A stretch of 64,000 nucleotides of DNA from Elusimicrobiota bacterium (GTDB lineage Bacteria > Elusimicrobiota > Elusimicrobia > FEN-1173), in contig JADKHR010000001.1 of the NCBI GenBank assembly GCA_016721625.1, forward strand, positions 1,967,225-2,031,224. The letters are read 5' to 3'. The position numbers and the translations under genes were made by a program. This document shows, one piece after another, positions 22,875-45,417 of the stretch. The notes under the pieces are model-generated. The model had not been told where the DNA came from and made no database searches. It saw only the letters and a program-made list of their open reading frames with translations. Each line of letters starts with the position of its first letter. Within the stretch, counting starts at the first letter, position 1.

Positions 22875-23903
22875 ATGGAAAAGTCTTTTGTTCCCTTGGG
22901 GTGGTTGCCTCAAGAACACGTCGTCCAAATCAGCGCGGATTACGTCGAGGTTCTTGGCACCGATCGAATCGATAACGTGGAAAAACGTCTAGGTCCGTCG
23001 TATCAGGCGTACCGCGCGAACTGGACGTCACGGCCGCGATCGCAAATCGTGGGCGATTATCCCCTCCATTTGGATGTGGAATGCACGGCCGTTTGCAACC
23101 TTCGTTGCACCATGTGTCAAATCCCCTTTGATACGATGCCCTCCGGGTTGATTTCCCCAGGCCTCTTCAAGAAGATCATGGACGAAATTAAGCTGAGCAA
23201 AGCCGACCTTCCCTCCGTGAAATTTAATTTTCGCGGGGAACCCACCCTCCATCCTCAGATAGCGGAATTTGTCCGCTTGGCTCGGGAGTCGGGAATTATG
23301 GATGTCCAGTTCAACACGAACGGGACCATGCTGAACGAAAAACTTTCCAAGGACCTTATCTCCGCCGGTCTGGTGCGCATCAAATTTTCTTTGGACAGCA
23401 TGAATCCTTCCCTCTACAACAGCGTTCGGAAAGGCGCCGACTACAAAAAAACGTTAGGGCACATCCTTGATTTTTTGAGAATTCGAAATGAGCTTGGATC
23501 GGCTTTTCCTTCCGTGATGGTCCAAATGGTTTTCATGTCCATGAACCAAAATGAACTCATGGATTACATCCATTTCTGGCAGGACAAGGTCAACCGGATT
23601 GGGATTTCACGCTACCGCTCCGGCAACAATGAGTCCGGAGAGGACGCCCAGGTGAATGTTCCAGTGCAAACCGAACGGTTCCCTTGCCCCCAGCTATGGC
23701 AAAGGCTGGTCATCCTTTTTGACGGCACGGTGCTGATGTGTTGCGGAGATCACCACAGCAAAAATCCTATCGGGGATATCAAAACCCGTTCAATCCGTGA
23801 CATTTGGCACAGTCCGGAGCTCTCCGCCATGAGACGATTACATTCGGAACACCGGTATGATGAAATAGAGGCGTGCAAGGGTTGTCAAATCAACTGTCGT
23901 TGA
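22875..23903 (+). CDS. radical SAM protein with C-terminal SPASM/twitch-like Cys cluster
   Basis: CxxxCxxC motif in ...ECTAVCNLRCTMCQ...; C-terminal cysteine-rich region ...CPQLWQRLVILFDGTVLMCCGDHH...ACKGCQINC. Confidence 0.8.
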   Translation: MEKSFVPLGWLPQEHVVQISADYVEVLGTDRIDNVEKRLGPSYQAYRANWTSRPRSQIVGDYPLHLDVECTAVCNLRCTMCQIPFDTMPSGLISPGLFKKIMDEIKLSKADLPSVKFNFRGEPTLHPQIAEFVRLARESGIMDVQFNTNGTMLNEKLSKDLISAGLVRIKFSLDSMNPSLYNSVRKGADYKKTLGHILDFLRIRNELGSAFPSVMVQMVFMSMNQNELMDYIHFWQDKVNRIGISRYRSGNNESGEDAQVNVPVQTERFPCPQLWQRLVILFDGTVLMCCGDHHSKNPIGDIKTRSIRDIWHSPELSAMRRLHSEHRYDEIEACKGCQINCR

Positions 23904-24576: not shown

Positions 24577-26502
24577 ATGCGGAAAATGTTTATTGCCACC
24601 GGTGACCGTCGGCTCGATTTGGGTGTTTCGCTTGAACCCGTTACGGCCTTGCGCGGCGGGTCGAATTTGGTCGCGAGTCTTAAAACGGCCGATCATACGA
24701 TTTCTATCTCGGCCACGAAGAAAGCCTACATTTGGGGGGATTTGTTTTATTTCATTAACCCGGACGGTTCCGTCCTCCCGATGAATTCAAAGGGGCGGAT
24801 CCAAAACATTTTCCGGAAACATTCCTATCGGGATATTCATCACTCGATGGAAGGCCAGTTCGTGTGCCTGCTCGCGGATTCCGAAAAGAGAAATGCCGTT
24901 ATTTTTTCCGATCGATACTCGCGCCAAGATTATTTTTACGCGGAAGAAAATAATCAATTCTACCTCAGTTCCGATCTGGATTTGTTGTTCACGTTCATTC
25001 AACCGCGCTACGACCAGAAAATGATCGCCCACATGTTTTCGGTGTATGGGTGGTATGTCCCCAAGCCGCGAACCATGTATGTGGGAGTGAACCGTTTGGC
25101 CGTTGGAGAAATTAAACATTTGGACGGGGAGATTTCAACGGAACAGGTCGAATTCAAACCTCTGCCCATCCAAGATTACACTCAAAACCACCTGGCCACG
25201 TACGAGAGTTATTTGCGGAATTCCATCAGAACCCGGGCCAACCAAAAAGGGACCACATGGGTGTCCAGTTCAAGCGGTTGGGATTCGTCCAGCTTGGTCG
25301 GCCTGTTGGCGGATGAGTTCGGTTCTGGAAAAGTCAGGATGGTCACCGGCAGTATGCTGTACTCGAAGGCGACCCATGTCATCAATTCTTTTGAAATCGA
25401 GAAGATAAAGAAAATCGGCAAATTTTTTGGAATCCGCCCCGATATTGTTCCTTTCGATTTCAAAAACCGGGCCATCGTGGATTACTGGAAGAAGGTGCTT
25501 CCATTTTATAAATCGCGTCATGTCTACACGATCGTCACCCACAATTACTCCCGCTTGTCCGAACGGCTGACGGAGTCGAACGGAGGGTCGGAAGTGGTTT
25601 TCAATGGAGAGACCTCGGATTCTTTTCACAATTTCGGGTTTTCTCAATTTGTGACATTTTTTCATACCGTCAAATCATTCACCGAATACGCCGATAAAAT
25701 GAATTGCTATCTTTTCGGACCGACTTTCTTTAAGAAAGTCCTTGATGATTCATACCTGAGCGACAAAGTGTTCCAGATTTTTCAACGAATGAAACCCGAG
25801 GTCAAGTGGGCGGGGGCGGGGGCCTCCAAGGCGGAAAAGATGCGCGCCTATTTATCTCCGTTATTCCACGGCTCAACGAGGATTCCCTTTGCGAGAATCC
25901 CCGCCAATCCGGCCCTGAAACCGTCTGTTGAGGCCCAATCCGTCCATTACATGTTTGAGTGTTTTCGGAATTTGGAATCGATGACCCCGGAAACAATGTA
26001 TTCGTGGATAATTTATCTCTACCACAGCATGCATTCCCAGGGCTCCACGGTCAATGTTCAAAAACACGCCATGGCCATGAACGGCCACGGGTGGAGATCT
26101 CCTTTTAATGATTTACGATTAATCCAACTGCTTTCACAGGCTCCCGAGTCTTGGGGACGGGGCCTCGATCTCCATCACACAAAGTATCCGCTGAAATGGT
26201 TGTTGAAAAACCGTCTTAAATTTCCGTATGAATTGCTTGAAACGGGTCCCCATTCCTATCTCTATGACGTTCTCGAGGGATTTTCTTTGACCGAGGAGAT
26301 CGTCTACCGATCGGGAGTGAGTGAATTTTTCCGTCAAACCCTCCATTCAAAGCCGTATCGAGGGTTATTGGATGATCGCACCTTCAATGTCAAATACCTG
26401 GACTCCATTGCGGATGCGTATCTGCAAAAAAAGGAGACGAAAGGCCAAGATTTCAACAATCTTGTCAGTCTGATCACTTTGTGCATGACCGGGTGGTATT
26501 GA
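24577..26502 (+). CDS. asparagine synthetase-like PP-loop ATP pyrophosphatase lacking N-terminal Cys nucleophile (possible sugar amidotransferase)
   Basis: 641-aa ORF; PP-loop-like segment ...TTWVSSSSGWDSSSLVGLL...; N-terminus MRKMFIATGD has no Cys2. Confidence 0.55.
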   Translation: MRKMFIATGDRRLDLGVSLEPVTALRGGSNLVASLKTADHTISISATKKAYIWGDLFYFINPDGSVLPMNSKGRIQNIFRKHSYRDIHHSMEGQFVCLLADSEKRNAVIFSDRYSRQDYFYAEENNQFYLSSDLDLLFTFIQPRYDQKMIAHMFSVYGWYVPKPRTMYVGVNRLAVGEIKHLDGEISTEQVEFKPLPIQDYTQNHLATYESYLRNSIRTRANQKGTTWVSSSSGWDSSSLVGLLADEFGSGKVRMVTGSMLYSKATHVINSFEIEKIKKIGKFFGIRPDIVPFDFKNRAIVDYWKKVLPFYKSRHVYTIVTHNYSRLSERLTESNGGSEVVFNGETSDSFHNFGFSQFVTFFHTVKSFTEYADKMNCYLFGPTFFKKVLDDSYLSDKVFQIFQRMKPEVKWAGAGASKAEKMRAYLSPLFHGSTRIPFARIPANPALKPSVEAQSVHYMFECFRNLESMTPETMYSWIIYLYHSMHSQGSTVNVQKHAMAMNGHGWRSPFNDLRLIQLLSQAPESWGRGLDLHHTKYPLKWLLKNRLKFPYELLETGPHSYLYDVLEGFSLTEEIVYRSGVSEFFRQTLHSKPYRGLLDDRTFNVKYLDSIADAYLQKKETKGQDFNNLVSLITLCMTGWY

Positions 26503-28053: not shown

Positions 28054-28073
28054 ATGGAATAGGGAGAATCCCA

Positions 28074-29077
28074 TTGGGTCGTCAAAAATTTCAATTTCCG
28101 CTCCTCATCGCAGAGGTTGCCAATTCACACGGGGGTTCTCGTCCGTATCTTTTCCAACTGACCAAGAGGCTGCTGGCTACGAGCGTCCCTGCCGTTAAAT
28201 TTCAATGCATCGTGGCGGATGATTTTTTGACCCCCGCTCACCCCCAATACGAGCTATTCAAGTCCTTTGAATTTCCGCCGACCGTATTTTCCACGCTGGT
28301 GCGGCTCATCCATGGGGCAAGGAAAAAGGCGTATTTTGACGTTTTCGGCGACATCTCGTTGGCGGCGGCGGATCGGGTCGGCGCCGACGGTTTTAAAATC
28401 TATGCCAGCGACATCGGCAATAATCCTTTCATTGAAAAGGTCCTCTCGATCGGAAAGCCGGTCTTGATCTCAGTGGGGGAGCGACGCTGAGCGAAATCGA
28501 CGAGATTGTTAAAATATGTTCGGGAAAACAGTTCTGTCTCTTGGTGGGGTTTCAAGCGTTCCCTACTCCGATCGAGGAATCCAACGTGGGGAAAATTAAA
28601 TTCCTAAGAGAACGATACGGTTGTTCCGTCGGATACATGGATCATTCTCCGGCCATTGACCCTTTCTCGGAATTTGTCCCTTGTTTGGCGGTTGGGCAAG
28701 GGGCCTGTTGCATCGAAAAACACGCGTATCTTAAAGCCAGGAAGACCTTGTATGATTGGCAATCGGCGTTCGACCCCTCCCAGTTTGAAACGCTCGCTCA
28801 CCGCCTTAAGAAGGCTCAGTCCGCGTTGGGGACAACGTTCTTTCCCCTTTCTTCTTCTGAACAGGCTTACTCCCGCTCAAAGCGGAAAATCATTGTCGCG
28901 GCCGATCCGATCGACCAAGGAGTTCGGATCCTCCCCAAGAACATCATGGGCCGATGCGCCCATCTTTCTTCGAGGACCTCGTTTTTCACACTCAACCAGT
29001 CCGGCCACGTGGTCGGTCGAGTGGCTCGAAAAAATATCCAACGGTTCGAGGTGATCTCGCCGGACATTTTAAGATGA
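28074..29077 (+). CDS. NeuB-family nonulosonate/ulosonate synthase paralog 1 (one frame change)
   Basis: TTG 28074 after AGGGAGA RBS; N-terminal ...PLLIAEVANSHGGS...AVKFQ...; continues after a frame change at ~28470 (ISVG / GGATLSEIDEIVKICSGKQFCLLVGFQAFPTP...MDHS...IEKH...). Confidence 0.7.
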
Positions 29078-29823: not shown

Positions 29824-30881
29824 ATGGGTGGAATTCGGTTCCAACACGGCGCCGCTATCGGCGACGGGGTTCACTGTTTCATCATGCTCGACGCGGGGGT
29901 CAATCACAACAACGATGTCGGGCGAGCCAAAGAACTTATTCGATCCGCCAAGGCCGGAGGCGCGGACGCTATTAAATTCCAGACCTACAGTGCGGAGGAG
30001 ATCAGCACGAAAAAAGCCGCTCGGTATTGGGATCCGAAACTGGACACGGACGGGGGGGGGACCCAATTCGAAATGTTCGCGCGGGTGGATGACTTGCCGA
30101 AAAAGCGTATTTTGGACTCAAAGAGTATGCCCAGGAACAAGGGATCCTTTTTTCTTCATCCCCTTTCGGCATGGACAGCGCCCGATTTTTGAAGAAACTG
30201 GGGGTCGATTTCTTTAAGATCGCCTCAGCGGAGATTACAAACTTGCACCTGATTGAATTCATCGCCGACTGCGGAAAGCCGATTGTTCTGTCGACGGGGG
30301 CGGCCTCCATTGGGGAAGTGGAGAAAGCCATTGACGTCATTCACCGGACAGGCCTTCGAGAGATCGCGCTTCAGCATTGCGTGCTGAGTTATCCGTGCAA
30401 GGATGATGACGCGAATCTGGCCAAAATGGTCCGGTTGAAGCAGATTTTTCCGGACATCCCCATCGGGTATTCCGACCATACCTTTGGGGCGGAAGTGCCG
30501 TTGGCTGCGGTGGCGTTGGGGGCGCGTTCGATTGAAAAGCATTACACCTTGGACAGCCGTCTCCCCGACAGTCCCGATCATAAATTCGCCCTGACGAGCG
30601 ACGAACTGGGGGATTTCGTAAAACGTTGTCGGAGGGTGGAAAAATCAATCGGCACCTACCGGAGCGGACATTACGCGGCGGAGGAGAAAGCCTATCAACT
30701 CGCACGCAAGAGCCTGGTGGCCGTCCGTCGAATTAAGAAGGGCGAAAGGATCACGGATCGAGCCGTTTCCTGCAAGCGGCCCGGGACCGGCATTTACCCC
30801 GAGTTTTTGGGGGTCATCGTGGGGAGAACGGCCAAAAAAAACATCGAACCGGACGAGCTACTCTCGTGGGACATGTTTTAG
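29824..30881 (+). CDS. NeuB-family nonulosonate/ulosonate synthase paralog 2 (one frame change)
   Basis: N-terminal ...CFIMLDAGVNHNNDVGRAKELIRSAKAGGADAIKFQTY...; frame change at ~30101 (A5 run; one more A gives ...LPKKAYFGLKEYAQEQGILFFSSPFGMDS...); middle ...GKPIVLSTGAASIGEVEKAIDVI...GYSDHT...IEKHYTLD... Confidence 0.7.
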
Positions 30882-30982
30882 AAGGATCCTCATGGGCTTT
30901 GGGTTCTCTCGTTCCGGCGGGATGGGTCGTTCGCGGCGTTTAAAATATTCAACGAATTCTAACGTTGCCTTTTGGAGCCAAA

Positions 30983-31978
30983 ATGAAAAACATGTTTGAG
31001 GGGAAAACCGTTTTGGTCACGGGGGGGACGGGATCTTTCGGGAAGATGTTTACGTCGATTTTCCTGAAGCGGTTTCGCCCCGAGAAACTGATTATCTTCA
31101 GTCGGGACGAGTACAAACAATCTGAAATGGCAAAAACGTTTCCCATCGAGAAGTTTCCCGTGAGGTATTTCATCGGAGACGTCCGGGATCACGACCGGTT
31201 ATTCCGCGCGTTCGATGGGGTGGATTATGTCGTGCATGCGGCGGCGCTTAAGCAAGTGCCGGCTCTTGAATACAATCCCACCGAGGCGGTGAAGACCAAC
31301 GTCACCGGGGCGGACAACATCGTCGAAGCGGCCGTGGATCGAGGGGTAAAAAAGGTGATCGCTCTCTCCACCGACAAGGCCGTCAACCCCATCAATCTTT
31401 ACGGGGCGACGAAACTTGTGGCGGAAAAGATTTTCGTCGCCGCCAACGCATACACCGGGAATAAGACCAAATTCTCGGTGGTGCGTTACGGGAACGTCGT
31501 CGGTTCCCGGGGAAGCGTTATTCCCTTGTTTGCCGATCTTAAGAAACGGGGCGTGAAGGAGTTCCCCATCACCGATGAGAAAATGACTCGATTTTGGATC
31601 GGTTTGGGGGCAGGGGTTGACCTCGTTTTGCGTGCGCTCGAAGAGGCCGAAGGCGGCGAACTTTTTGTGCCCCGCATCCCCTCCATGAGGATAACCGACT
31701 TGGCGCGGGCTGTGGATCCGGAGTGCACGTTTAAGAAGTTGGGCATACGTCCAGGGGAAAAACTGCATGAAACCCTCATTTCCGAAGACGAGGCGCGAAG
31801 CACAAAACAAGTCGGTGATTTCTACGTCGTTTTGCCGCAGTTCATGATCAGCGCCGCCCTCGATTCAAAATATGATCCGTTCGAATTCGTGAAAAATGTT
31901 TTTTCCTACCGGAGCGATACCAACGATCGGTGGCTCGATATCGCGTCTTTAACCGCGATGATTTCGCAGAATGAATAG
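30983..31978 (+). CDS. pseB: UDP-N-acetylglucosamine 4,6-dehydratase (inverting), PseB/FlaA1-type SDR
   Basis: MKNMFEGKTVLVTGGTGSFGK... N-terminus, YGATK catalytic motif, ~330 aa; followed by DegT aminotransferase. Confidence 0.8.
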   Translation: MKNMFEGKTVLVTGGTGSFGKMFTSIFLKRFRPEKLIIFSRDEYKQSEMAKTFPIEKFPVRYFIGDVRDHDRLFRAFDGVDYVVHAAALKQVPALEYNPTEAVKTNVTGADNIVEAAVDRGVKKVIALSTDKAVNPINLYGATKLVAEKIFVAANAYTGNKTKFSVVRYGNVVGSRGSVIPLFADLKKRGVKEFPITDEKMTRFWIGLGAGVDLVLRALEEAEGGELFVPRIPSMRITDLARAVDPECTFKKLGIRPGEKLHETLISEDEARSTKQVGDFYVVLPQFMISAALDSKYDPFEFVKNVFSYRSDTNDRWLDIASLTAMISQNE

Positions 31979-31990
31979 GGCCCTCTTTCC

Positions 31991-33133
31991 TTGATCCCTT
32001 ACGGAAAGCAATCGGTCACCCGTGCGGATGTGCAGGCGGTGGCCTCCGCCCTTCGTTCGGACTGGCTGACCCAGGGTCCTCGGGTGGGCGATTTTGAAAA
32101 AGCGTTGTGCCGCTACACCGGAGCGCGCCACGCCGTGGCGGTTTCAAGCGGCACCGCCGCGTTGCATCTCGCGATGCTTTCTCTGGGGGTCGGTCCCGGG
32201 GAAACCATCCTCACTTCCCCCATCACTTTTGCGGCGAGCGCCAACTGCGCGTGTTATGTCGGGGCGCGACCGCATTTTATCGATATTGACCCTAAAACCT
32301 ACCAGATGAGCGCGGAACGCCTGGAGGAGTATCTCCGGGTTGAATCTCGCAGGAGAAAAGTGCGAGTCATTATCCCTGTGCATTTTATGGGGACGGTTCC
32401 GGACGTCCGGGCGTATTCCCAAATCGGCGCGCGCTACGGCATTCCCGTTGTGGAAGATGCGGCACACGCTCTGGGGGCGGCCTATGAGCACAAAGGAGCC
32501 CAGGTTCGCGTTGGTTCTGGCTTTCATGCCGATGTGAGTATTTTAAGTTTCCATCCCATAAAACATATTACAACCGGTGAAGGCGGGGCCCTGCTCACCA
32601 ACAATAAGCGCATCTACGAACGGGCGCGTCGTATGAGGCATCATGGGATTACAAAGGACCCTTCTCGGCCGCGATGGTTTTACGATATCCCTGAGCTGGG
32701 TTACAACTATCGCCTAACGGATTTCCAGTGTGCGTTGGGGTTGTCTCAGTTGTCCCGCATTGAACAATTCCGCAAAGCGCGGTACGCGCTTGTTCAGAAA
32801 TATAATTCGGCGTTCAAAAGGATTCCGGAAATAATTCTCCCATTTGAAAGACCAGGGACAACCCCCTCTTATCATTTGTACGTCATTCAGGTCCCGCCCA
32901 AAAAGCGCCAGGCGTTGTACGACCATCTTTTTGGAAAGGGAATTGGAACGCAGGTCAACTATATCCCCGTTCACCTGTTTTCGTTTTACAAAAGACAATT
33001 CGGATATCGTCTTGGAGATTATCCGAACGCCGAGAGGTACTACCAGCGATGTTTAAGTCTGCCTTTGTTTCCTGGATTATCCTCTTCGGAACAGGAATAT
33101 ATCATCAAACAGGTCCAAGGATTTTTTCGATGA
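31991..33133 (+). CDS. pseC: DegT/DnrJ/EryC1/StrS-family sugar aminotransferase (PseC-like)
   Basis: 380-aa ORF with PLP-dependent sugar aminotransferase features (…AVSSGTAALHLAM…, …SFHPIKHITTGEGGAL…); immediately downstream of pseB. Confidence 0.7.
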   Translation: MIPYGKQSVTRADVQAVASALRSDWLTQGPRVGDFEKALCRYTGARHAVAVSSGTAALHLAMLSLGVGPGETILTSPITFAASANCACYVGARPHFIDIDPKTYQMSAERLEEYLRVESRRRKVRVIIPVHFMGTVPDVRAYSQIGARYGIPVVEDAAHALGAAYEHKGAQVRVGSGFHADVSILSFHPIKHITTGEGGALLTNNKRIYERARRMRHHGITKDPSRPRWFYDIPELGYNYRLTDFQCALGLSQLSRIEQFRKARYALVQKYNSAFKRIPEIILPFERPGTTPSYHLYVIQVPPKKRQALYDHLFGKGIGTQVNYIPVHLFSFYKRQFGYRLGDYPNAERYYQRCLSLPLFPGLSSSEQEYIIKQVQGFFR

Positions 33134-33137
33134 CGCG

Positions 33138-34016
33138 ATGTTGAACGCCGACAGGATCTGCCTCGGTACGGTCCAATTGGGTCTACCTTACGGGATCGCC
33201 AACCGGGGAGGACAACCCGACCTCCCCGCCGCTTTCTCGATCCTTGACGCCGCGCATCAAAGCGGGATCTCCCTGCTGGACACCAGCCGCGCCTACGGAA
33301 CCAGCGAGGAGGTCATTGGGTCCTTCGCCGAAAAGATGGGGAGGTCTTTCCAGGTCATTTCGAAATTGCCGCCCCATCCGAATTGTTCTCGTCTGAGCGT
33401 CTCGGGGTTTCTGAAGGAATCGTTAACCCGGTTGCGGGCCCCCTTTCTTCAAGGATACCTCATTCACGATTTCAAAACGTATCGCGACCACCCGGAAGTT
33501 TGGGATTTCCTGTTGGGACTGAAAAACGACCATCTGGTTAAACAAGTCGGTTTTTCCGTCTATTTCCCCAGAGAGGTTGAACTCTTTCTGGCGCAGGGGA
33601 TTTGCCCGGATATTGTCCAAATTCCGTTCAGTGTTTTGGATACCCGATTTGCGCCGCTCCTTTCGGAGTTGAAACAAAGGTCCGTGGAAGTTCACGCCCG
33701 ATCGGTCTTTTTGCAGGGCGCTGTATTCCTCCCGGAGGAGAAGCTGACGGGGGCTCTCCAAAAGGCGGCGGCCTCGATTCGAAGACTCCGTGAACTGTCT
33801 TCACAGACGGGGGTCCCGGTGCTCGATCTTTGCCTGCGGTTCGTGGTGGCGCACGAAACCATTGATCGGATCGTCCTGGGGGTCGATTCGGCGGCTCATT
33901 TGCGGACCAACGTCGCGGCGCTCGGAAACCCTTTTGAAGATTCCGCTCTATCGGCAGAATTACGACAACTGGCTGTGAATGAGGAGAAGGTCGTGGTTCC
34001 CTCCCTCTGGACCTGA
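33138..34016 (+). CDS. aldo/keto reductase family oxidoreductase
   Basis: 292-aa ORF; ...LGTVQLGLPYG... and ...LLDTSRAYGTSEEVIG... typical of AKR family. Confidence 0.7.
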   Translation: MLNADRICLGTVQLGLPYGIANRGGQPDLPAAFSILDAAHQSGISLLDTSRAYGTSEEVIGSFAEKMGRSFQVISKLPPHPNCSRLSVSGFLKESLTRLRAPFLQGYLIHDFKTYRDHPEVWDFLLGLKNDHLVKQVGFSVYFPREVELFLAQGICPDIVQIPFSVLDTRFAPLLSELKQRSVEVHARSVFLQGAVFLPEEKLTGALQKAAASIRRLRELSSQTGVPVLDLCLRFVVAHETIDRIVLGVDSAAHLRTNVAALGNPFEDSALSAELRQLAVNEEKVVVPSLWT

Positions 34017-34029
34017 TACAATTCGTCCC

Positions 34030-34803
34030 GTGAATACGGTCGCGATCGTCCAAGCCAGGATGTGTTCCACCCGTTTGCCGGGAAAAGTCTTATTGTCCTT
34101 GGGAGGAAAAAAGGTCTTGGAGCACGTGGTGGGAAGAATCCGCCGTGCCCGATTGGTCCGCGACGTGGTCGTCGCCACCACGATCCAGGAGGAGGATTTG
34201 GAGATCGTCAGGTTTTGCGCCGAAAACAAGATCCGCGTTTATGTGGGTTCGGAACAGGACGTTCTCGATCGTTACTATCAGGCGGCCCGGTTGTTCCACG
34301 TCGACCACGTGGTGAGAATCACGGCGGATTGTCCTGTTATCGACCCCCGCATTATCAATCGGGTGATCGCCCGCCATTTGGCCAGCCGCTCCGACCTGAC
34401 CGCCAACATACTTCGAGAAACCTTTCCCGACGGCCAGGATGTCGAGGTGTTCACTTTTTCGGCCTTATCGCGAGCATGGAAGGAGGCCAAGTTGGCCTCT
34501 CAGCGGGAGCACGTGACTCCCTACCTGAAGGACCATCCGACCCTCTTCAAGCTGACCAATGTCGCGTGCAGGGAAAACCTCGGAAAAATGAGATGGACTC
34601 TTGATAACAAGGAAGACTTTTTATTCTTGAAACATATTTTCAACGCTCTTTACGACAAAAAGAAAATATTCGGAATGGAGGATATACTCCGTTACTTGAG
34701 AACACATCCCGAAGTGGAAAAGATCAACGGACTCCTTGAGCGAAACGAGGGTTATAAGAAATCCCTCCGGCAAGACCGTCCGGTGGGAACGGAATGGCGA
34801 TAA
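34030..34803 (+). CDS. cytidylyltransferase (CTP_transf_3 family), second copy
   Basis: GTG 34030; ...NTVAIVQARMCSTRLPGKVL... and ...RITADCPVIDP... motifs. Confidence 0.7.
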   Translation: MNTVAIVQARMCSTRLPGKVLLSLGGKKVLEHVVGRIRRARLVRDVVVATTIQEEDLEIVRFCAENKIRVYVGSEQDVLDRYYQAARLFHVDHVVRITADCPVIDPRIINRVIARHLASRSDLTANILRETFPDGQDVEVFTFSALSRAWKEAKLASQREHVTPYLKDHPTLFKLTNVACRENLGKMRWTLDNKEDFLFLKHIFNALYDKKKIFGMEDILRYLRTHPEVEKINGLLERNEGYKKSLRQDRPVGTEWR

Positions 34804-34825: not shown

Positions 34826-36136
34826 ATGAACAAAACCCAATCGTTGTATAAGAAGGCCAAGGAATTAATTCCGGGGGGAACCCAGCTGTTTTCAAAACGG
34901 CCGGAACTCTACTCTCCCGGTTTATGGCCGGCCTATTTTTCCAAGGCGCGCGGTTGTCTCGTTTGGGATCTTGATGGAAAATGCTACGTCGACATGGCGT
35001 CCATGGGAATCGGATCCTGTCTTCTGGGTTATGCAGATCCGGACGTAAATGCGGCCGTTTCCAGGGTGGTGCGCGCCGGGAACATGAGCACGCTGAACGC
35101 CCCGGAAGATGTGGAATTGGCCAAACTCTTGGTATCTTTGCACCCGTGGGCGGACATGGCGCGATTTGGGCGCGGCGGCGGCGAAGCCATGTCGATGGCC
35201 GTGCGGATTGCCCGCGCGAGGACGGGGCGCGACCGAGTATTGTTCTGCGGTTACCACGGATGGCATGATTGGTATTTGGCCGCCAATGTGGCTGATAAAA
35301 AATCTCTGGACGGACATCTCCTTCCCGGCTTGAACCCCGCGGGTGTCCCTCGCGCTCTTCGGGGAACGGCCGTTCCGTTCACCTACAATGACACCGTTGG
35401 TTTTAGGAAACTCATCAAAGATGGAAAACGAAAAATCGGCGCGGTTATTCTTGAATCCATTCGCGGAGTGAAACCCGAAGGCGGTTTCCTGGCCGCCGTT
35501 CAAGAGGAGACTCGCGCCATCGGCGCTGTGTTAATTGTGGATGAAATAACCGCCGGTTTTCGGCTGACCGTCGGCGGAGCGCACTTACTCTTTAAGCTTA
35601 AACCCGATTTAGCGGTGTTCGCCAAGGGGATGAGCAACGGGTACCCCATGTCCGCCGTGATCGGGGTCGCGGACGTTATGCAGGCCGCCCAGGATTCCTT
35701 TGTGAGCAGTACCTATTGGACGGAAAGAATAGGGCCGAGCGCGGCCATCGCGACCATAAACAAGATCAAACACCTCCACATCCCGGGAAGGCTCTGCCGG
35801 ATCGGCAGGGAAGTGCAGGCCGGATGGAAGACCGCGGCTCACCGGCACGGGGTGGATATCTCCGTGGCCGGAATGGATTCGCTTTGCCACTTCAGCTTTA
35901 ACCGGGGGGATCCTTTACTGCTGAAGACGCTTTTCACGCAATTCATGCTGGAAGAGGGATTCCTCGCATCGAACGCGTTCTATGCGAGTTTTGCGCATAA
36001 GGAAAAACATATCGGGAACTATTTGGCCTCCGCCGATAAAGCCTTTTTCAAAATAGGGAAAGCCTTGCGAAGCGGCACGGAACGCTCCCTGCTACGCGGT
36101 CCGATTTGCACGAGCGGTTTCAAACGGTTGACGTGA
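34826..36136 (+). CDS. class-III (glutamate-1-semialdehyde aminomutase-like) PLP-dependent aminotransferase
   Basis: 436-aa ORF; ...GGTQLFSKRP...; ...LIVDEITAGFRLTVGGAHLLFKLKPDLAVFAKGMSNGYPMSAV... Confidence 0.75.
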   Translation: MNKTQSLYKKAKELIPGGTQLFSKRPELYSPGLWPAYFSKARGCLVWDLDGKCYVDMASMGIGSCLLGYADPDVNAAVSRVVRAGNMSTLNAPEDVELAKLLVSLHPWADMARFGRGGGEAMSMAVRIARARTGRDRVLFCGYHGWHDWYLAANVADKKSLDGHLLPGLNPAGVPRALRGTAVPFTYNDTVGFRKLIKDGKRKIGAVILESIRGVKPEGGFLAAVQEETRAIGAVLIVDEITAGFRLTVGGAHLLFKLKPDLAVFAKGMSNGYPMSAVIGVADVMQAAQDSFVSSTYWTERIGPSAAIATINKIKHLHIPGRLCRIGREVQAGWKTAAHRHGVDISVAGMDSLCHFSFNRGDPLLLKTLFTQFMLEEGFLASNAFYASFAHKEKHIGNYLASADKAFFKIGKALRSGTERSLLRGPICTSGFKRLT

Positions 36137-36189
36137 GTTTGCCCGTGTCTATTGAAATTCCGGGCATCGCGTGGCAAGCGGGATAGCTG

Positions 36190-36547
36190 TTTTCCTTTAA
36201 AGGGGTTCCTATTGGCCGACCTCAATAAGCAACAATTTTGGGATGAAAAGATTATCGGTTGGAAAAGCGACAAATACGCCCTTCCGCGGGATGGTTCCGT
36301 CGTCTGGTGGATGTCAATCAATCCCTCAAGAACAGGCACCTCCTCGCGCAAAATGTCCTCCGCCAGGTGGTGAAGGGAAAGTCGGTATTGGAAATCGGCT
36401 GTGGGACGGCCCGATTGCTTCCTTCGATCATGAATGACGGCGCGACGAAATAGGTGGGCGTGGATAATTCAGATGTGGCGTTGAAAAGGACGGCGGGACG
36501 TCTCTTGGGAAAATACCCGAAGGCGAGGTCGGACGGTAACGGCTAAC
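36190..36547 (+). pseudogene. remnant of class I SAM-dependent methyltransferase (N-terminal part only, frame-shifted)
   Basis: Motif I ...VVKGKSVLEIGCGTARLLPSIM... followed in another frame by YVGVDNSDVALKRTAGRLLGKYPKARSDGNG then stop; remainder of fold absent. Confidence 0.3.
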
Positions 36548-36799
36548 GCCGTTGAGATCAAGCCTATCCCCGCTTTCAATCGATATAAATGAAGGGGTTA
36601 AACTGACGCTTTTGAAGAGGACCATTGTGTTAGGTCACGAGTTCGGCAGCGCGCAGCGCTGCTGAACGGGAGATATAGCTCGCGGCGGCGCGGACATTGA
36701 AGGGTTCATACTGGAGGCCGGGAAGAAATGTTAATGGGAGACTTCCCTTCTTCTGACGGATGGAAAATGAAATCCTAAGGCGGAACAAAAGGGAAACCA

Positions 36800-39013
36800 A
36801 TGAAAAACGAAAACGCAAATCCGGCGATCGTCGTTTATCTCGCTGAACTGGCCCATGATGGTTTTGGTTTGAGTCTTCGTACCTTCCCTCTGGGCCTCGG
36901 CGTCGTCGGGTCCTATGTGAAAGAAAAATTCTCCAACAGGGTGGACCTCCATCTTTTTAGAACCTATGGGGATCTGATGGCGGCCGTCAAAGAAAAAACG
37001 CCGGATATTGTGGGTTTCGGCTATTTCTCCTGGAATGATTATCTGACCTTGGTGGCGGCGAGAGCCATACGAGAATCCTGTCCCCGCGCGCTCATCGTTT
37101 TCGGCGGGGCGAATATCAGCCCCTTTGGCCAAGAAAAAACGAGCGGTTTCCCTTTCGCGGGGAAAACGGGAGGCGCTATTCCGATGGCCCCGGCCCCCCA
37201 GAACGAGGCCCTCCATTCGTTCACCTGGCCGGTCTATAACGACTATCAACTCCTGGCGGCTTATCCGAACATCGACGTGCTTATTCATGGCGACGGCGAG
37301 ATCCCGATGGCGGATTTAGTGGCGAAGTTTATCGAAACCGGGGATAAGGAGGCGGTGAAGAGCGCCGGGGTTCCGGGGTGCAGTTCAAGGGTGGGCGACG
37401 CCATCGTTTGCGGGCCCGCCCCGGAAATATTGTTTGACTTGGACCGAATTCCGTCCCCCTATTCGTCCGGCCTGTTCAAAGGGTTCATGGACAAATACAA
37501 CCTCCTTCCGCAGATCGAAACGACGAGAGGCTGTCCTTACAAATGCACGTTCTGCACGGTCGGATTGAATGAGGGAAAGATGCGCAAGCACTCCCTGGAG
37601 TATTCAAAAGACGAAATCCGCTACCTCATGAACCATTATCCGAACACCGTTTTGCGAATCGCCGACCCCAACTGGGGCATCGCCGAAAAAGACGTGGAAC
37701 TGGCCGAATTCATCCACGAATTGCGAAAGACCACGGGGTATCCCTCCAGCCTGAGGGTGTATTACTCCGCGGGGGGGCCTTTCAAAAATATCAAGACCAT
37801 GGCGCTTTTGATGAAAGACCTTTTACCCTTGAATATGAGCTTTCAATCGTTGAACGTGGAAACCCTGAAGAACATCAAACGGGGAAACATGCCCCTGAGC
37901 AAGGTCCAGGAAATGGTGGCCTACGCGCGCTCGAACGGCATCGCCTCCTCCACGGAGCTCATCTCGGGGCTTCCGAAAGAGTCCCTTTCGTCGTTCAAGA
38001 ACTCTTTCCTGATGGCCGTCACGCTTCGCCTGGACAGTGTATATGTGGGCGCGCTCTACCTGATCAAAGGTTCCGAGTTGTATACCGGGGAGGCTCGAGC
38101 CCAGTACAAGTTCCGGACCAAGTTCGCGCTCATCGAAAAAGACGTGACACGGATCGACGACCGATGGGTCTTTGAGATGGACGAGCTTGTGGTGGAGCAT
38201 TCGGAAATGACGGAAGCCGATTTCTACGAACTATACCGGTTTAAGATCTGGGGGATGGTGGGTTACGGTTCGGCCTACCTTAAGGAAATCATCATGCATG
38301 GCTTCAATTACGACGTGACGATTATCGAGATCTACGACGAACTGGTCGGAAACCCAGAGCGATACCCTTTCCACCGAACGATCCTCTCTGAATACGTGGA
38401 GAGTATTAAGCCGCTGTTTTTTGACACGCCCCAAGCCCTTGAAGAAAAACTGGTGCAACATATCGAAAAACACGGAAACGTGGATCGGTTCTATTGGAAC
38501 CGATACACCCAATTGACGATGGCGAAAGTTCTGGGGCGGGAAAGCAAGGTCGTTTTCGTCAACGAGGTCGCCGCCGCCGCCAAAAAGGTCTTTGACAGAA
38601 AGGTTCAAGGCGAAGCTCCTGCCGATCGAAAGAGTGATTTTTATTCGATTTTGGATGTTTTGTCCGGCCTCCAACCGGATTGTATCATCAGCCCGCTAGA
38701 GACTAATGAACGCGTGGTGAATGTGGAATTGCCGTTTGATGTAAAGGTTTGGGCCGACGAGAATTATGAGTTTCCGCTCTCCCGTTATCGATTGCCAAAA
38801 CCGAGAAGGTTCGGCCTGGTGATACGCAATATTCAGGAACATATCAACTTCATGAGAGATACGAAATCCTTTGATTCTACGGCCGACAAATATGAATACT
38901 ATTACAACGTTATGGTTTCTTCCAATATGCGGCGGTCCATCGCTTATGCTGAGGAGCACGGGTTGATCAACACGGAAGTCCCCGGGGTGGTTCATCCGAT
39001 GGAAAATAATTAG
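36800..39013 (+). CDS. B12-binding domain radical SAM protein (class B-like)
   Basis: 737-aa ORF; N-terminal cobalamin-binding-like Rossmann segment (...PDIVGFGYFSWNDYLTLV...LIVFGGANISP...) and radical SAM CxxxCxxC in ...TTRGCPYKCTFCTVG... Confidence 0.8.
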   Translation: MKNENANPAIVVYLAELAHDGFGLSLRTFPLGLGVVGSYVKEKFSNRVDLHLFRTYGDLMAAVKEKTPDIVGFGYFSWNDYLTLVAARAIRESCPRALIVFGGANISPFGQEKTSGFPFAGKTGGAIPMAPAPQNEALHSFTWPVYNDYQLLAAYPNIDVLIHGDGEIPMADLVAKFIETGDKEAVKSAGVPGCSSRVGDAIVCGPAPEILFDLDRIPSPYSSGLFKGFMDKYNLLPQIETTRGCPYKCTFCTVGLNEGKMRKHSLEYSKDEIRYLMNHYPNTVLRIADPNWGIAEKDVELAEFIHELRKTTGYPSSLRVYYSAGGPFKNIKTMALLMKDLLPLNMSFQSLNVETLKNIKRGNMPLSKVQEMVAYARSNGIASSTELISGLPKESLSSFKNSFLMAVTLRLDSVYVGALYLIKGSELYTGEARAQYKFRTKFALIEKDVTRIDDRWVFEMDELVVEHSEMTEADFYELYRFKIWGMVGYGSAYLKEIIMHGFNYDVTIIEIYDELVGNPERYPFHRTILSEYVESIKPLFFDTPQALEEKLVQHIEKHGNVDRFYWNRYTQLTMAKVLGRESKVVFVNEVAAAAKKVFDRKVQGEAPADRKSDFYSILDVLSGLQPDCIISPLETNERVVNVELPFDVKVWADENYEFPLSRYRLPKPRRFGLVIRNIQEHINFMRDTKSFDSTADKYEYYYNVMVSSNMRRSIAYAEEHGLINTEVPGVVHPMENN

Positions 39014-39024
39014 GGGTCGACCCG

Positions 39025-39897
39025 TTGATGACCCATGTATTCATCGTCAATGATTTAAAGGGGGTCCGAAAGATCGTTGAACAAAAAGCGGGCGGACCTT
39101 TCTCGTATTTTGTTTTCAGGGAACATGCCCATGGTCCAGAATCCAACGAGCTCAAAAAGGCCGGGGGAATTGAGATCAAGGCCGGAAAACTCTTTTCGGA
39201 GGTTAACGCGCATTTTCGGGACGATTTCGTTTCTTGGATGGGGGCGCTCAATAACGCCGGTCATTCCCCGTTCTGGGACGGATTGGACCTGGCCGGGAAA
39301 AGCGCCCTTTCCACGCGGGTCTGCGAACGCGTTTTTTATACGGACTGTTTGACCCGCCTTTTGAAATACGACGGCGAGGATTTGGTGATCGTCTTTGATG
39401 ATGCCGCTGTCCTCCGGCAAATAAAACGCAACTTTAAAAACAGGATCATCCGTGATTTCAGCGTCGGGAAACCGCTCGGACTAAGAATTCTCACGGATTT
39501 TCTTCCGGGAAAGGTCCTCCATCGATTCGTAGTTTCCGTTTTCCGAAAAACAACCGCTGGGCCAACCCCTTTTCCAACGGGCCTCCAGCGCCTGGTCGTT
39601 GTTAAGACAGTCCTCAGTGAGGGATCCTTTGACGTCGCGGGCGCTTATCGGGATCTCTACTTCGGGGATCTTCTCCCTTACCTGCAAGAGAGGCAAAAGA
39701 ATTTATTGGTCGTTGGCATCGTTCTAAACGCTTATCGACAAACGGTGGAATACCTGCGGCGAAGCGGGACCCTCCAGGTGTATTCCATCGAGCAGTTGCT
39801 GAGCGTGTTCGAATTGGTCGGGATTTTTATTCGCGCGGTGTGGATGTTTTATTCTCGCCTTTTTACGATCTCCGGGTTCCCCGTTTCCGAGGAATGA
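39025..39897 (+). CDS. hypothetical protein
   Basis: 290-aa ORF, protein-like composition, no recognised motif; stop overlaps next start (ATGA). Confidence 0.4.
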   Translation: MMTHVFIVNDLKGVRKIVEQKAGGPFSYFVFREHAHGPESNELKKAGGIEIKAGKLFSEVNAHFRDDFVSWMGALNNAGHSPFWDGLDLAGKSALSTRVCERVFYTDCLTRLLKYDGEDLVIVFDDAAVLRQIKRNFKNRIIRDFSVGKPLGLRILTDFLPGKVLHRFVVSVFRKTTAGPTPFPTGLQRLVVVKTVLSEGSFDVAGAYRDLYFGDLLPYLQERQKNLLVVGIVLNAYRQTVEYLRRSGTLQVYSIEQLLSVFELVGIFIRAVWMFYSRLFTISGFPVSEE

Positions 39898-40810
39898 GTC
39901 TGCAACGGATTGTGCAGGATTCGGTGATGGAGGAATTGAGGGCGAGCCTGAATATGGTCAAAATGATGAATTCGCTTACGACAAAGAAAATCGTCGAACA
40001 AAACGATGTGGAGCGGTTCATTCTGCCCTATGAAAACCGCGGTTGGGAACGAGCGGATATGATGGTTCTTCGCGCCCTCAGCAGGCAGACCCGCGTCATT
40101 GGATATCAGCACGCCGCCATCACCGGGAAGCACACCGAATATTGTCTTTCGGCGGCGGAAGCCCTTCCCCTCCCAGACGTCCTTGTTTCCATGGGAGAGG
40201 TAACCGCCCATATGCTCACCCATCGCGGGGGGTACCCCGAAGGGATCGTGAAAAGCGGGTGTGCCCTCCGACAGAAAGGCGGCGAAGTCAAAATCTTACC
40301 GCCCCGGCGACAGCCGGCCCATGTATTGGTGTTGCTTTCCACCAGTCCGGATTACTACGCACGGACTCTCTTTGCATTGAATAAGATCTTCAAGGCTCCC
40401 GGTGGTTATTCAATTCGTCTGCGCGCGCACCCGCTCATCCCGTTAAAAAACGATCTCCGCAAAACAATCGTCTTCCCTTATGGGGAGGATCATTCCTTGG
40501 AAGACGACGCGATCGACTGGGCGGACGTGGTTCTTTACAGTTCATCGACCACATTGGTTCTGAATTGTGTGCAACGCGGAAAACCTGTATTCTATGTTCC
40601 AGTCGATGATTATTTGGATTCGACCCCCTTTACGAGTCGGCGGACATTAAATGGGTGGTTCGCACCGCTGATGCGTTTCATCAGGCCATGGCGGAATTGG
40701 GTAGCATGGACCCAGCCCGATGGCAAGCGCGGGTGACCCAGGCTCAGGCATACGTCGGGCGTTATTTCGGACCCGTTTCTAAATCAGCGATGAACATATT
40801 CCTTGAATAG
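39894..40810 (+). CDS. hypothetical GT-B-like protein (TagF/capsule-biosynthesis-like C-terminal region), one frame change
   Basis: ATG 39894; ...DWADVVLYSSSTTLVLNCVQRGKPVFYVPVDDYLDS... resembles the donor-binding region of TagF-like glycosyl/glycerophosphotransferases; C-terminus continues in another frame from ~40625 to stop 40808-40810. Confidence 0.35.
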
Positions 40811-42793: not shown

Positions 42794-44321
42794 AGCCTTC
42801 CCCGCCTCCTTTGGCGGTTCGAGCGGATGCTGGGCCCGCCATGGGGACTGGGCATATGATGCGTTGTATCGCGCTGGGGCAGGCTTGGCGCGCTTTGGGA
42901 GGCCGGGTCGTTTTTCTAACGGCGAACAGCCTTCCCTCTCTTTTGTCTCGAATACCTGGAGGGATTTCGTCATTCCCCTTTTGACGGTTCGAGCCGGCGG
43001 CCGGTCGGACGCTGTCAAAACGGCGGACGCGGCGCGGAGGTTCGGGGCTCGCTGGGTCGTGGTCGATGGATATCATTTCGGGCCCGGCTATCGAGAGATT
43101 TTGCAAAAAAGCGGATTTCGCGTTTTGTGGGTTGACGATCTCGGCAGTTCCGAGAATTGTTTTTCAGACATTGTTGTGAATCAAAACCTTCACGCCAAGC
43201 CGAACCTTTATCCTCGCCGTGAGGCCCGCCCCCGGTTGATGTTAGGGTCCCGCTACGCGTTGTTGCGAAACGAGTTCTCCGCTTTCCAGCGGCGATCCGC
43301 TCGGCATTCAACAGTGAAACGAATATTGGTTTCGGGCGGGGGAACCGATCCTAAAAACATAACGAGAACCGTTCTGAAGGCCTTGGCGAATGTTCCGGCT
43401 CCTCGGTTTGAGATCGACGTCCTTCTTGGCGGAGGGTATCGTAAGGCGTGGTCCCTCGCCGGATGGGCACGCCGGGCGGGTGTTCATCGGGTTCACGTTC
43501 ACAAAAACCCAAGAAATATCGCTTTTCTGATGTCTCGTGCCGACCTGGGAATCCTGGCGGCCGGATCCACTTGTTTGGAAATCGCTCGATTGGGGCTTCC
43601 GGCTATTCTCGTGGCCCAATCTGACAACCAAACCAACATCGCCCATTCAATGCATCAAGAGGGTGCCGCCTGGAGCCTGGGGTCCATCGCTTCCTTGTCG
43701 GTAGGGGAAATCCGGGATCGAGTCGAATGGTTGGCGCGATCGCCATCGGTTCGTAAACGAATGTCTCTAAGAGGAAAACGGCTCGTTGATGGAAAAGGGG
43801 CCAAGCGCGTGGTGGCCATGATGCAGGACATGGCTTCGCCAAGGGTTCCCTTTGTTCTTCGACGCGTCCGTCCCTCCGACTGTCGAAGGTTGTGGAATTG
43901 GGCGAACGACCCGGCCGCCCGCGCGGCAAGTTTTTCTGAAACCCGTATTCCATGGGGGCCCCACCAGGCCTGGTTTAAGGAACGACTTAATAATTCCCAT
44001 TGTGTTATTTTCGTTGCCGTTCTTCGACAGGGGAAATCCATTGGAAGTGCGCGTTTTGAACGCCGAAAGATCGGTTGGGTGATTTCCGTTTTTGTCGAGA
44101 GGACCTATCGTGGGCAAGGGCTTGGATCCAGTCTCATCCGAACGGCGGCATGCGCGTTCATGAGGGACACCGGAGAAAAGGTTGTGAACGCTTATGTGAA
44201 GCCCACCAACGGCGCTTCTCTCCAAGCTTTCCTTCGAGCGGGGTTTCGTCAAAGGGCGAAAACGCGCATTTCAAACACTCCGGCCTATTGGTGTGTGTTA
44301 ACCACGGAAGATTGTCAATGA
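42784..44321 (+). CDS. pseG: bifunctional PseG-like UDP-sugar hydrolase / PseH-like GNAT acetyltransferase (one frame change)
   Basis: N-terminus ...LAVRADAGPAMGTGHMMRCIALGQAW... (PseG-like) in frame 1, continuing after a frame change at ~42950 in frame 0 (...WVVVDGYHFGPGYREILQKSGFRVLWVDDL...); C-terminal GNAT domain ...FVERTYRGQGLGSSLIRTAACAF... Confidence 0.65.
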
Positions 44322-45417
44322 ACGAACCCACAGCGATCCGCGATCGGAACGTTGGAGACGGGAACCCGGTCTACATCGTGGCGGAGATGTCGGCGAATCA
44401 CGGGGGGGACTATTCCAGGGCTGTGAGAATACTGCAGGAGGCCAAGACCGCCGGGGCTGACGCGGTCAAACTTCAGACCTACACGGCCGATACCCTCACG
44501 ATAAAATCCGAGCAGGACTGTTTTCGAATCGGCCATGGTTCTTTGTGGGAAGGAAAGCGGCTTTACGACCTCTATCAGGAGGCGTACACCCCTTGGGAGT
44601 GGCATCCGAAGCTGAAGGAAGTGGCCCGACGCTTGGGTTTGGATCTTTTCTCCTCGCCCTTTGACGCCACCGCCGTGGAATTTTTGGAAACAATGGATGT
44701 TCCTTGTTATAAGATTTCGTCATTCGAGATCATCGATATCCCGTTGATCCGGCGCGTGGCGCGAACCGGAAAGCCCATGATCCTGTCAACGGGAATGGCC
44801 ACCCGGGAGGAAATTGACGAAGCGGTGCGCGAAGCCCGCACCCACGGAGCCCGTGGGATCGTTCTTCTTAGTGTCAGCGCCTATCCGGCGCCGGCAGAGG
44901 AAATGAATCTTCGCGCCATTCCGCGCCTCTCCCATGATTTCGGCTTTCCGGTGGGATTATCGGACCATACGCTTGGATCGGCCGCCCCCGTGGCCGCCGT
45001 TGCGTTGGGGGCCTGTCTCATGAAAAACACTTTACGCTTTCCCGTTCGTTTGCCGGTCCGGATAGTTCGTTTTCAATGGAACCCACGGAGTTCAAGGCCA
45101 TGGTGGAAGCTGTTCGTGGAACGGAGAAAGCTCTCGGAAAATCTGATTACGTTTTGGGGGAGAAAGAGAAGGCGAGTCGCGCTCTCCGGCGCTCTCTGTT
45201 TGTGGTCCAAGAGATGGCGTCGGGCGACGTTTTCACCGAGACCAACGTCCGTTCCATTCGGCCGGCGAACGGGTTGCCTCCCCGTCATTACGCGGAGGTG
45301 TTGGGCCGCCGCTCGACGCGTGGGATACAACGCGGGACGCCGTTGACGTGGGACCTTGTGGAAAAAATAGGGGATGGAATGATCAAAGATACGGGGAAAT
45401 CCAGGAGCGAAAAATGA
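44318..45417 (+). CDS. pseI: pseudaminic acid synthase-like NeuB-family enzyme (PseI-like), one frame change
   Basis: ...VYIVAEMSANHGGDYSRAVRILQEAKTAGADAVKLQTY...GKPMILSTGMAT...GLSDHTLG...; frame change at ~45032 (ctcatgaaaaacac); then ...EKHFTLSRSFAGPDSSFSMEPTEFKAMVEAVRGTEKALG... with SAF-like C-terminus. Confidence 0.75.

Follow-up and report, generated by a model that had tools for sequence, protein, structure and literature searches.

The closest described relatives of the enzyme treated here are the radical S-adenosylmethionine (SAM) proteins TokK, ThnK, and CysS, which depend on cobalamin. Characterised members of this group are radical methylases which use methylcobalamin (MeCbl), and published structures and papers place the characterised enzymes in antibiotic pathways. 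In TokK and CysS, a tryptophan (W76 and W75, respectively) lies on the lower axial side of the cobalamin, 3.8 Å beneath the cobalt, and keeps the cobalamin free of a lower ligand. The substrate cavity of CysS is built from strands 1-3 of the barrel, a C-terminal helix, and F17 of the loop that follows the first Rossmann strand. Here, we describe a gene for a relative of these enzymes in a 64,000-nucleotide stretch of Elusimicrobiota bacterium DNA (assembly GCA_016721625.1, contig JADKHR010000001.1, positions 1,967,225 to 2,031,224), the whole of which is called the window below. The gene belongs to a clade which is dedicated to loci for nonulosonic acids (NulOs) of the pseudaminic acid (Pse) type. 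With belief and doubt about evenly matched, we propose that its product C-methylates an anionic Pse-pathway intermediate by cobalamin-dependent radical chemistry, both chemistry and substrate being predicted by analogy. The gene and its parts are as follows.

36800..39013, + strand: complete radical SAM gene, ATG start, 737 amino acids (open reading frame finder and translation)
36824..37414, + strand: N-terminal Rossmann-type putative cobalamin-binding domain, residues ~9-205 (model secondary structure, Pfam, Foldseek)
37118..37249, + strand: insertion of ~40 residues in the Rossmann domain, residues 107-150 (alignment against TokK; low model confidence)
37505..38119, + strand: radical SAM core at residues ~236-440, folded as a partial TIM barrel (PF04055; alignment to the TokK and CysS cores)
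37532..37555, + strand: CX3CX2C motif with C245, C249, and C252 as [4Fe-4S] ligands (translation; invariant in all compared sequences)
38120..39010, + strand: mainly helical C-terminal domain, residues ~441-737 (model secondary structure; Foldseek)
38915..38935, + strand: VSSNMRR motif, residues 706-712, invariant (invariant alignment columns)

The open reading frame (ORF) is collinear with 27 orthologs along its full length and contains no frameshift, unlike several neighbouring genes. An initial annotation made from the nucleotide letters had described a 737-residue ORF with a CPYKCTFC radical SAM core, and this was borne out, the motif (residues 245-252) lying within a match to Pfam Radical_SAM (PF04055, residues 239-402) which at 49.5 bits exceeds the gathering cutoff of 29.5. 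The same annotation had placed a cobalamin-binding-like Rossmann segment at the N-terminus. Fold and residue evidence uphold this part, whereas the Pfam check it had suggested (PF02310, residues 28-107) stayed below threshold at 23.2 bits (E 6.7e-5; cutoff 32.1). The domain call holds in spite of the Pfam score because PF02310 matches are precomputed for many of the orthologs, and because both the fold and the conserved Trp under the cobalt agree with it.

An AlphaFold2 model was built on 28 family members (predicted local distance difference test score [pLDDT] 83.1, predicted template modelling score 0.84), and in it, the Rossmann domain consists of five strands and a beta-hairpin. Foldseek aligned the model with TokK (7kdx) at E 4e-33 and a template modelling (TM) score of 0.74, normalised to TokK, over ~700 columns which include the C-terminal domain, and with CysS at a TM score of 0.72, likewise over ~700 columns. 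Matches to OxsB (E 3e-14, TM 0.46), TsrM, and MgmA, the glutamine methylase of methyl-coenzyme M reductase (MCR), were much weaker, and the Rossmann domain separately matched 1y80, a corrinoid protein, as well as B12 domains of mutases (3kp1, 4r3u). TokK is also the top solved relative by sequence (E 2.9e-33 with HMMER, 4.3e-47 with a family profile), and CysS scores 2.5e-28 and 1.3e-44, respectively; no further solved structure is strongly related by sequence. We are highly confident that the protein is a three-domain class B (cobalamin-dependent) radical SAM enzyme of the TokK type.

No NCBIfam model claims the protein. The best match, the KedN5 family (NF033712), covers the core region alone (residues 151-497) and reaches 139.9 bits against a cutoff of 700, far too little for membership. 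The initial annotation had set its reading against a BchE or HemN-like identity; BchE was rejected at 51 bits against 481, as were HpnR (41.5 against 650) and HpnJ (37 against 578). Also rejected were the P-methylase models Sden_1168 (60 bits against 575) and PhpK (19 against 600), the C-methylases of ribosomally synthesised and post-translationally modified peptides (rSAM_ocin_1, 65 against 282), and the MCR glutamine methylase MJ_0865 (37 against 360). Nor does the protein match any of the six NCBIfam equivalogs of the Pse pathway (PseB, C, H, G, I, and F), and since its neighbours supply PseB, PseC, PseG, and PseI, it is therefore regarded as an accessory enzyme.

A search of a 5.8-billion-protein database recovered about 45 orthologs, mostly full-length, with 41-77% identity, and the next tier of relatives has at most 32% identity. 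Source names of the orthologs include Elusimicrobia, Proteobacteria, a hydrothermal-vent metagenome, and one Hodarchaeota (Asgard) metagenome-assembled genome. The clade amounts to two or three full-length representatives in a 50%-identity library, in which the wider TokK-like family comprises 576 clusters when E is capped at 1e-30 and 3149 when it is capped at 1e-10. The archaeal ortholog (P0030, from Candidatus Hodarchaeota) is full-length and 46% identical, and reflects either transfer of the module across domains or a binning artefact.

Seven ortholog contexts were read (ids L001-L004, L086, and L087). A NeuB-family synthase is found within 10 kb of the radical SAM gene in all seven, and NCBIfam assigns three of the four synthases tested to the PseI type (488 bits in L001, 485 in L004, and 351 in L087; cutoff 340), the fourth, in L002, being ambiguous. 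With the window included, the linkage is 8/8 as opposed to 3/81 loci of relatives with at most 32% identity (Fisher p=2.3e-9, a value which is indicative only, as the loci share phylogenetic history). This background came from a scan of GTDB representatives with a generic RGCPxxC pattern, in which relatives among the matches listed had at most 31% identity; the scan carries no weight on whether the clade is absent from species representatives or cultured genomes. One relative with 32% identity is located in a nonribosomal peptide synthetase (NRPS) locus. Co-occurrence with Pse genes, which had been suggested as a check, was found. The initial annotation was right in its classification: the protein is of the class B radical SAM type, and its gene lies in a Pse glycan island with PseB, PseC, PseG, and PseI among the neighbours. 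In addition, a trio of genes for an aldo/keto reductase, a CTP_transf_3 cytidylyltransferase, and a class-III aminotransferase flanks or encloses the radical SAM gene in the window and in five of the loci (L001-L004 and L087).

The residues that set the clade apart, together with the Trp under the cobalt, are listed below. They were mapped by HMMER alignment to TokK and CysS with roles taken from the structure papers and from a review of cobalamin domains, placement in the pocket following the alignment and not coordinates, and the residue table spans 157 relatives.

36854..36856, + strand: H19, conserved without exception in the clade and located in the loop that follows Rossmann strand 1 (alignment column; model secondary structure)
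37031..37033, + strand: W78, invariant together with N79 and counterpart of TokK Trp76 and CysS Trp75 in the alignment
37556..37561, + strand: T253 and V254, the latter at the place of TokK W215 and CysS W206 (alignment, residue table)
37655..37657, + strand: R286, invariant, barrel strand 2, aligned with TokK F247 and CysS F238
37754..37765, + strand: R319-V-Y-Y322, invariant, barrel strand 3, R319 aligned with TokK R280 and CysS W271

The equivalent of W78 is present in nearly all sampled TokK-like relatives, and Q349, E386, and E394, which are columns of the SAM core, are kept throughout the family. The set H19/W78/T253/[VI]254/R286/R319/Y321/Y322, on the other hand, is confined to the clade among the 157 relatives; TokK, CysS, and most of the others have D/x-W at positions 253-254 and an aromatic residue at 286. 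Most of these positions have known counterparts: TokK W215 and CysS W206, two residues past the third Cys, are active-site tryptophans important for catalysis, CysS F238 forms a wall of the substrate pocket, CysS W271 serves as substrate hydrogen bond and gate, and TokK R280 hydrogen bonds with the carbapenam carboxylate, the R280Q variant being nearly dead. The loop after Rossmann strand 1 carries E19 and Y20 in TokK and F17 in CysS, which line the substrate tunnel. It is also the position of the “His loop” of MetH, and the role of H19 is predicted from this location. In the model, the clade-specific residues T253/V254, which follow barrel strand 1, R286, R319-V-Y-Y, and H19 all fall on the elements that form the CysS cavity. 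The pocket is accordingly predicted from the aligned residues to be cationic and fit for a carboxylate- or phosphate-bearing substrate.

The initial annotation had suggested C-methylation of the sugar, or a radical modification akin to it. This stands as the best-supported reading, because the nearest relatives in sequence and fold, TokK and CysS, are iterative C-methylases and because the clade is strictly linked to NeuB/PseI genes; methyl transfer and substrate are its predicted parts. That the enzyme is a methylase of some kind is likely. All steps of the mechanism are modelled on TokK and CysS by homology. The [4Fe-4S] cluster on C245, C249, and C252 would reductively cleave SAM to a 5'-deoxyadenosyl radical, which would take a hydrogen from the substrate at an unactivated sp3 carbon, and the resulting substrate radical would capture a methyl group from MeCbl held base-off/His-off on the N-terminal Rossmann domain with W78 beneath the cobalt. 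A second SAM would re-methylate cob(I)alamin, and the cycle could possibly be repeated to add further methyl groups. The substrate would most likely be free or cytidine monophosphate (CMP)-activated Pse, or a nucleotide-sugar precursor, held by R319, the equivalent of the carboxylate-binding Arg of TokK, and by R286, with the aromatic residues of the natural-product enzymes replaced. This would yield a NulO, C-methylated or extended by C-alkylation, on a surface polysaccharide exported by Wzx. A more specific version, in which the clade C-alkylates the NulO itself at the C9 methyl, the C3 methylene, or an N-acetyl methyl, maybe iteratively in the manner of TokK, and so forms branched or chain-extended Pse of at least ten carbons, is offered tentatively as a possibility we rather doubt. 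We know of no described Pse derivatives that are branched or chain-extended to ten or more carbons.

Several observations weigh against the proposed C-methylase. The catalytically important W215 of TokK is replaced by V254 (V or I clade-wide), and the identity to TokK and CysS in structural alignment is only about 17-22%. Profile alignment to TokK and CysS finds no match past about residue 480-520; the C-terminal domain, which serves substrate recognition, cannot be aligned by sequence, and the VSSNMRR motif could not be placed on TokK Tyr652 by this means. To our knowledge, C-methylated pseudaminic or legionaminic acid has not been described, and literature searches turned up none. Finally, several genes of the pathway are frameshifted in the window, and the pathway may therefore not be intact in the source organism. 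Full-text searches also found no class B radical SAM enzyme tied to Pse, NulOs, or O-antigen loci; the nearest mention concerns Campylobacter fetus, whose phase-variable genes include SPASM-type radical SAM genes listed together with those for methyltransferases and formyltransferases.

Among the alternatives, the one that survives best keeps the radical methylase and moves its target from the NulO skeleton to a side-chain building block, an N-acyl group or a carrier- or coenzyme A (CoA)-bound precursor that is later attached to the sugar, for example by conversion of acetyl to propionyl to isobutyryl or by modification of a glyceroyl or amino-acyl substituent. For substrates, TokK and CysS both take small molecules in pantetheinyl linkage, whose alkyl groups beside a carbonyl or an ether oxygen they lengthen, three ortholog loci contain FkbH-like genes of the kind expected for a glyceroyl-type acyl group (one of them, L002, together with a gene called as a carrier protein), and GNAT acyltransferases as well as an AsnB-like adenylating enzyme are co-conserved. 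However, no carrier protein, CoA ligase, or NRPS/polyketide synthase match was found among the island ORFs of at least 80 residues in the window, FkbH and acyl carrier protein genes are missing from the window, L004, L086, and L087, and only the NulO core enzymes are universally conserved as partners. The two invariant Arg residues also suit a carboxylate or phosphate, such as that of (CMP-)NulO, and we consider a side-chain substrate rather unlikely.

A somewhat different departure would be cobalamin-radical chemistry without methyl transfer. Class B enzymes with the same Rossmann and barrel layout are known to perform such reactions (a review and the ThnL paper), no characterised enzyme is more than a distant relative of the clade, and the lack of the TokK Trp215 would fit. 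The relationship to TokK and CysS is nevertheless far closer, in sequence and fold, than that to OxsB (E 4e-33 against 3e-14; TM 0.74 against 0.46), the BchE and HpnJ models of NCBIfam match weakly, and the clade never departs from the hydrophobic Trp under the cobalt that typifies the radical methyl-transfer group, so that chemistry without methyl transfer is unlikely. That the gene is a passenger with no glycan role, or non-functional in this genome, is highly improbable, since the frameshifted neighbours, the decayed methyltransferase remnant directly upstream, and the atypical, seemingly horizontally acquired base composition of the island are countered by an intact ORF with all catalytic motifs, by full-length orthologs of 41-77% identity with many invariant residues, by synteny with NulO genes across phyla, and by frameshifts outside the island as well, which point to assembly indels.

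The proposed C-methylase lies in an island of ~15-52 kb in which all genes are on the + strand and the G+C fraction is 0.43-0.58, compared with roughly 0.6 outside. Housekeeping genes flank it, with PBP2 and RNase E/G at one end and glycerate kinase, PBP1, and H+-pyrophosphatase at the opposite end. The early part of the island encodes methyltransferases, GT4, MBOAT, SPASM radical SAM, GNAT, and AsnB-like proteins, a Wzx-type flippase, two NeuB paralogs, and an SpsF-like cytidylyltransferase; downstream of the radical SAM gene follow a TIGR04326-like protein, two GT2 proteins, PseG-GNAT, the PseI-type synthase, deoxysugar nucleotide genes, GT4, AsnB, and FemAB. The neighbours that bear most on the argument are as follows.

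22875-23903, + strand: SPASM radical SAM gene (library match)
24577..26502, + strand: AsnB-like adenylating protein of 641 residues (weak Pfam/NCBIfam matches)
30965-31978, + strand: PseB (NCBIfam equivalog, 485.6 bits against 407.75)
31991-33133, + strand: PseC (NCBIfam equivalog, 460.1 bits against 423.5)
33138-34016, + strand: aldo/keto reductase, first of the trio directly upstream (Pfam/NCBIfam)
33979-34803, + strand: SpsF-like CTP_transf_3 cytidylyltransferase, the second in the island and not a PseF equivalog (Pfam/NCBIfam)
34826-36136, + strand: class-III (glutamate-1-semialdehyde-aminomutase-like) aminotransferase (Pfam/NCBIfam)
42811..45360, + strand: PseG fused to a GNAT domain (PseH-like), then a PseI-type synthase, both frameshifted (Pfam/NCBIfam, tblastn)

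The locus looks like a Wzx-dependent surface polysaccharide locus with a Pse pathway. A flagellin glycosylation island was rejected, as Wzx and glycosyltransferases are present and neither flagellin nor Maf genes occur in the window. An Rfam scan of positions 13000-50000 (E<=1) returned no cobalamin riboswitch, in keeping with the initial annotation, which had seen none upstream, and no other family; a scan for consensus promoters and terminators around the gene gave nothing above shuffle expectation. The argument that a second radical SAM enzyme in the island supports sugar modification fails, as the SPASM gene is absent from all seven ortholog loci, and it was rejected as a functional partner for the same reason. 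Likewise, a conserved downstream partner was rejected because the ORF at 39025-39897 has no homolog in any fetched locus. The SPASM enzyme matches the radical SAM/SPASM half of “spiro-SPASM” TIGR04321 (94 bits, under the cutoff), and the cytidylyltransferase at 33979-34803 weakly matches the N-terminal half of that family (22.7 bits). Possibly the two genes of the island represent this fusion in split form.

The AsnB-like protein has an intact PP-loop (SSGWDSS) and lacks the N-terminal Cys nucleophile, features of a putative adenylating, amide-forming enzyme of the type of beta-lactam synthetase and CarA. Homologs of ~640 residues are encoded in L003 (15407-17323), L004 (7976-9910), L086 (8065-9942), and L087 (18394-20325), and in L004 and L086, the gene directly adjoins that for the radical SAM enzyme. 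In carbapenem clusters, beta-lactam synthetase and CarA partner methylases of the TokK/ThnK type. More speculatively, the AsnB-like enzyme may act on the same carboxylate as the proposed C-methylase, forming an amide or lactam, and thereby echo the pairing of CarA/ThnM with ThnK/TokK.

Other ortholog neighbourhoods add detail. FkbH-like genes stand beside the radical SAM gene in L002 (3761-6548), L003 (3697-6484), and L001 (15456-17192); L002 and L003 also contain a TylF-type O-methyltransferase gene, and the called carrier-protein gene of L002 lies between the FkbH-like and TylF-type genes. This arrangement suggests an (O-methyl)glyceroyl N-acyl decoration of the NulO in these loci. Di-O-methylglyceroyl-Pse is a similar decoration in Campylobacter. 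No DegT/PseC-type aminotransferase is visible in L002 and L003, where the class-III aminotransferase might replace the PseC-type enzyme or add another amino group. L086 carries two B12 radical SAM paralogs (5993-8053 and 10001-12139) from different TokK-like clades in one NulO locus, and further TokK-like clades occur near NeuB genes in Nitrospina (L019) and Pelagibacterales (L057). In uncultured marine bacteria, radical methylases may therefore turn up repeatedly in loci for surface glycans.

Frameshifts are common in this assembly. Compared with intact orthologs, all three NeuB-family genes are split (27918-29077, 29824-30881, and the PseI-type gene at 44318-45360), as is the PseG-GNAT gene (42811-44147), with frame changes placed by tblastn with intact orthologs near 42951-43005 and 45004-45040. 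The TIGR04326-like gene, the 14983-17068 gene, and the N-terminus of AsnB are probably frameshifted as well, the AsnB at 49540 lacking its N-terminal ~27 residues. Indel errors from long reads are favoured over decay of the pathway because fragmented genes also occur outside the island, namely, FG-GAP pieces (6186-7794), overlapping PLD ORFs (10016-11501), and a C-terminal piece of an M4 peptidase (13163-13957).

Two of these cases are pairs of adjacent ORFs. The ORFs 14983-16443 and 16463-17068 apparently represent one frameshift-split gene for an unannotated protein of ~650 residues which is kept in L004 and L087. The second pair, 39025-39897 and 39840-40736, overlaps in different frames and likewise looks like one split gene; its latter ORF has matches to TIGR04326, a protein of surface carbohydrate biosynthesis, and to L004_unk622. 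Both apparent genes are candidate NulO transferases or polymerases. The 660-bp gap directly upstream of the radical SAM gene (36137-36799) contains what is left of a class-I SAM methyltransferase (…VLEIGCGTARLL…K*VGVDNSDVAL…), which has an in-frame TAG and a frameshift, loses similarity after ~36530, and apparently represents a conventional methyltransferase in decay beside the radical one.

Within the radical SAM protein itself, the insertion in the Rossmann domain is bordered by residues 106 and 154, which align with TokK residues 104 and 114, and corresponds to columns 108-160 of the ortholog alignment; pLDDT falls below 50 at residues 109-124. This Gly/Pro-rich segment occurs in its long form only in an Elusimicrobia-type subclade (P0002-P0016) and is predicted to be disordered.

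If the proposed C-methylase is correct, radical C-methylation would extend to the NulOs of bacterial cell surfaces via a conserved, cross-phylum TokK-like clade. NulOs serve in the evasion of immunity, in recognition by phages, and in the function of flagella or capsules. The proposal predicts a new class of NulO structures with +14, +28, or +42 Da on Pse, traceable in mass-spectrometric glycan surveys, and would offer mechanistic studies a TokK-like enzyme whose substrate dissolves in water and can be obtained by synthesis. It would also give a handle on the widespread, unexplained module of aldo/keto reductase, SpsF-like cytidylyltransferase, and class-III aminotransferase in Pse-type loci. 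The kind of enzyme is already known; what we infer to be new is the pocket, the context, and the implied C-methylated NulO product.

Among known systems, the carbapenem C6 alkyl-chain methylases TokK and ThnK (PDB 7KDX/7KDY) have the same three-domain layout, and TokK shares the Trp under the cobalt (W76, here W78) and the Arg in barrel strand 3 (carboxylate-binding R280, here R319). The enzyme differs from TokK in that it is about 21% identical, has V/I254 for W215 and the invariant R286 for F247, contains the ~40-residue Rossmann insertion, and is encoded in a surface-glycan (Pse) locus and not in a beta-lactam cluster, with no pantetheinylated substrate evident. CysS, the iterative methylase which converts the methoxy group of cystobactamid to isopropoxy, sec-butoxy, and tert-butoxy groups (PDB 9N1B-D), is the second-best match by sequence and fold and keeps the equivalent of Trp75; its W271, W206, and F238 are replaced by Arg, V/I, and Arg, respectively, and its substrate is a neutral aromatic pantetheinyl thioester, whereas the pocket described here is predicted to be cationic. 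The KedN5 family of methylcobalamin-dependent radical SAM C-methyltransferases resembles it in the core only. Class B methylation of a CMP-linked substrate has a precedent in Fom3 of the fosfomycin pathway, which acts on cytidylyl-2-hydroxyethylphosphonate, and C-methylation of unactivated sugar carbons has one in GenK and GenD1 of the gentamicin pathway. These enzymes belong to different class B subfamilies, none of them known from NulO loci, and are likened to the present one by function only. The accessory trio itself has been described beside PseB/PseC/PseG/NeuB in the O-antigen locus of Legionella pneumophila Sg6/Sg12 and in the nab cluster of Vibrio B9-25K2 (PMC3694923, PMC7371886). Unlike the window, these published loci were described without a B12 radical SAM gene, and the radical SAM enzyme is therefore best seen as an add-on to a known, uncharacterised Pse-variant module.

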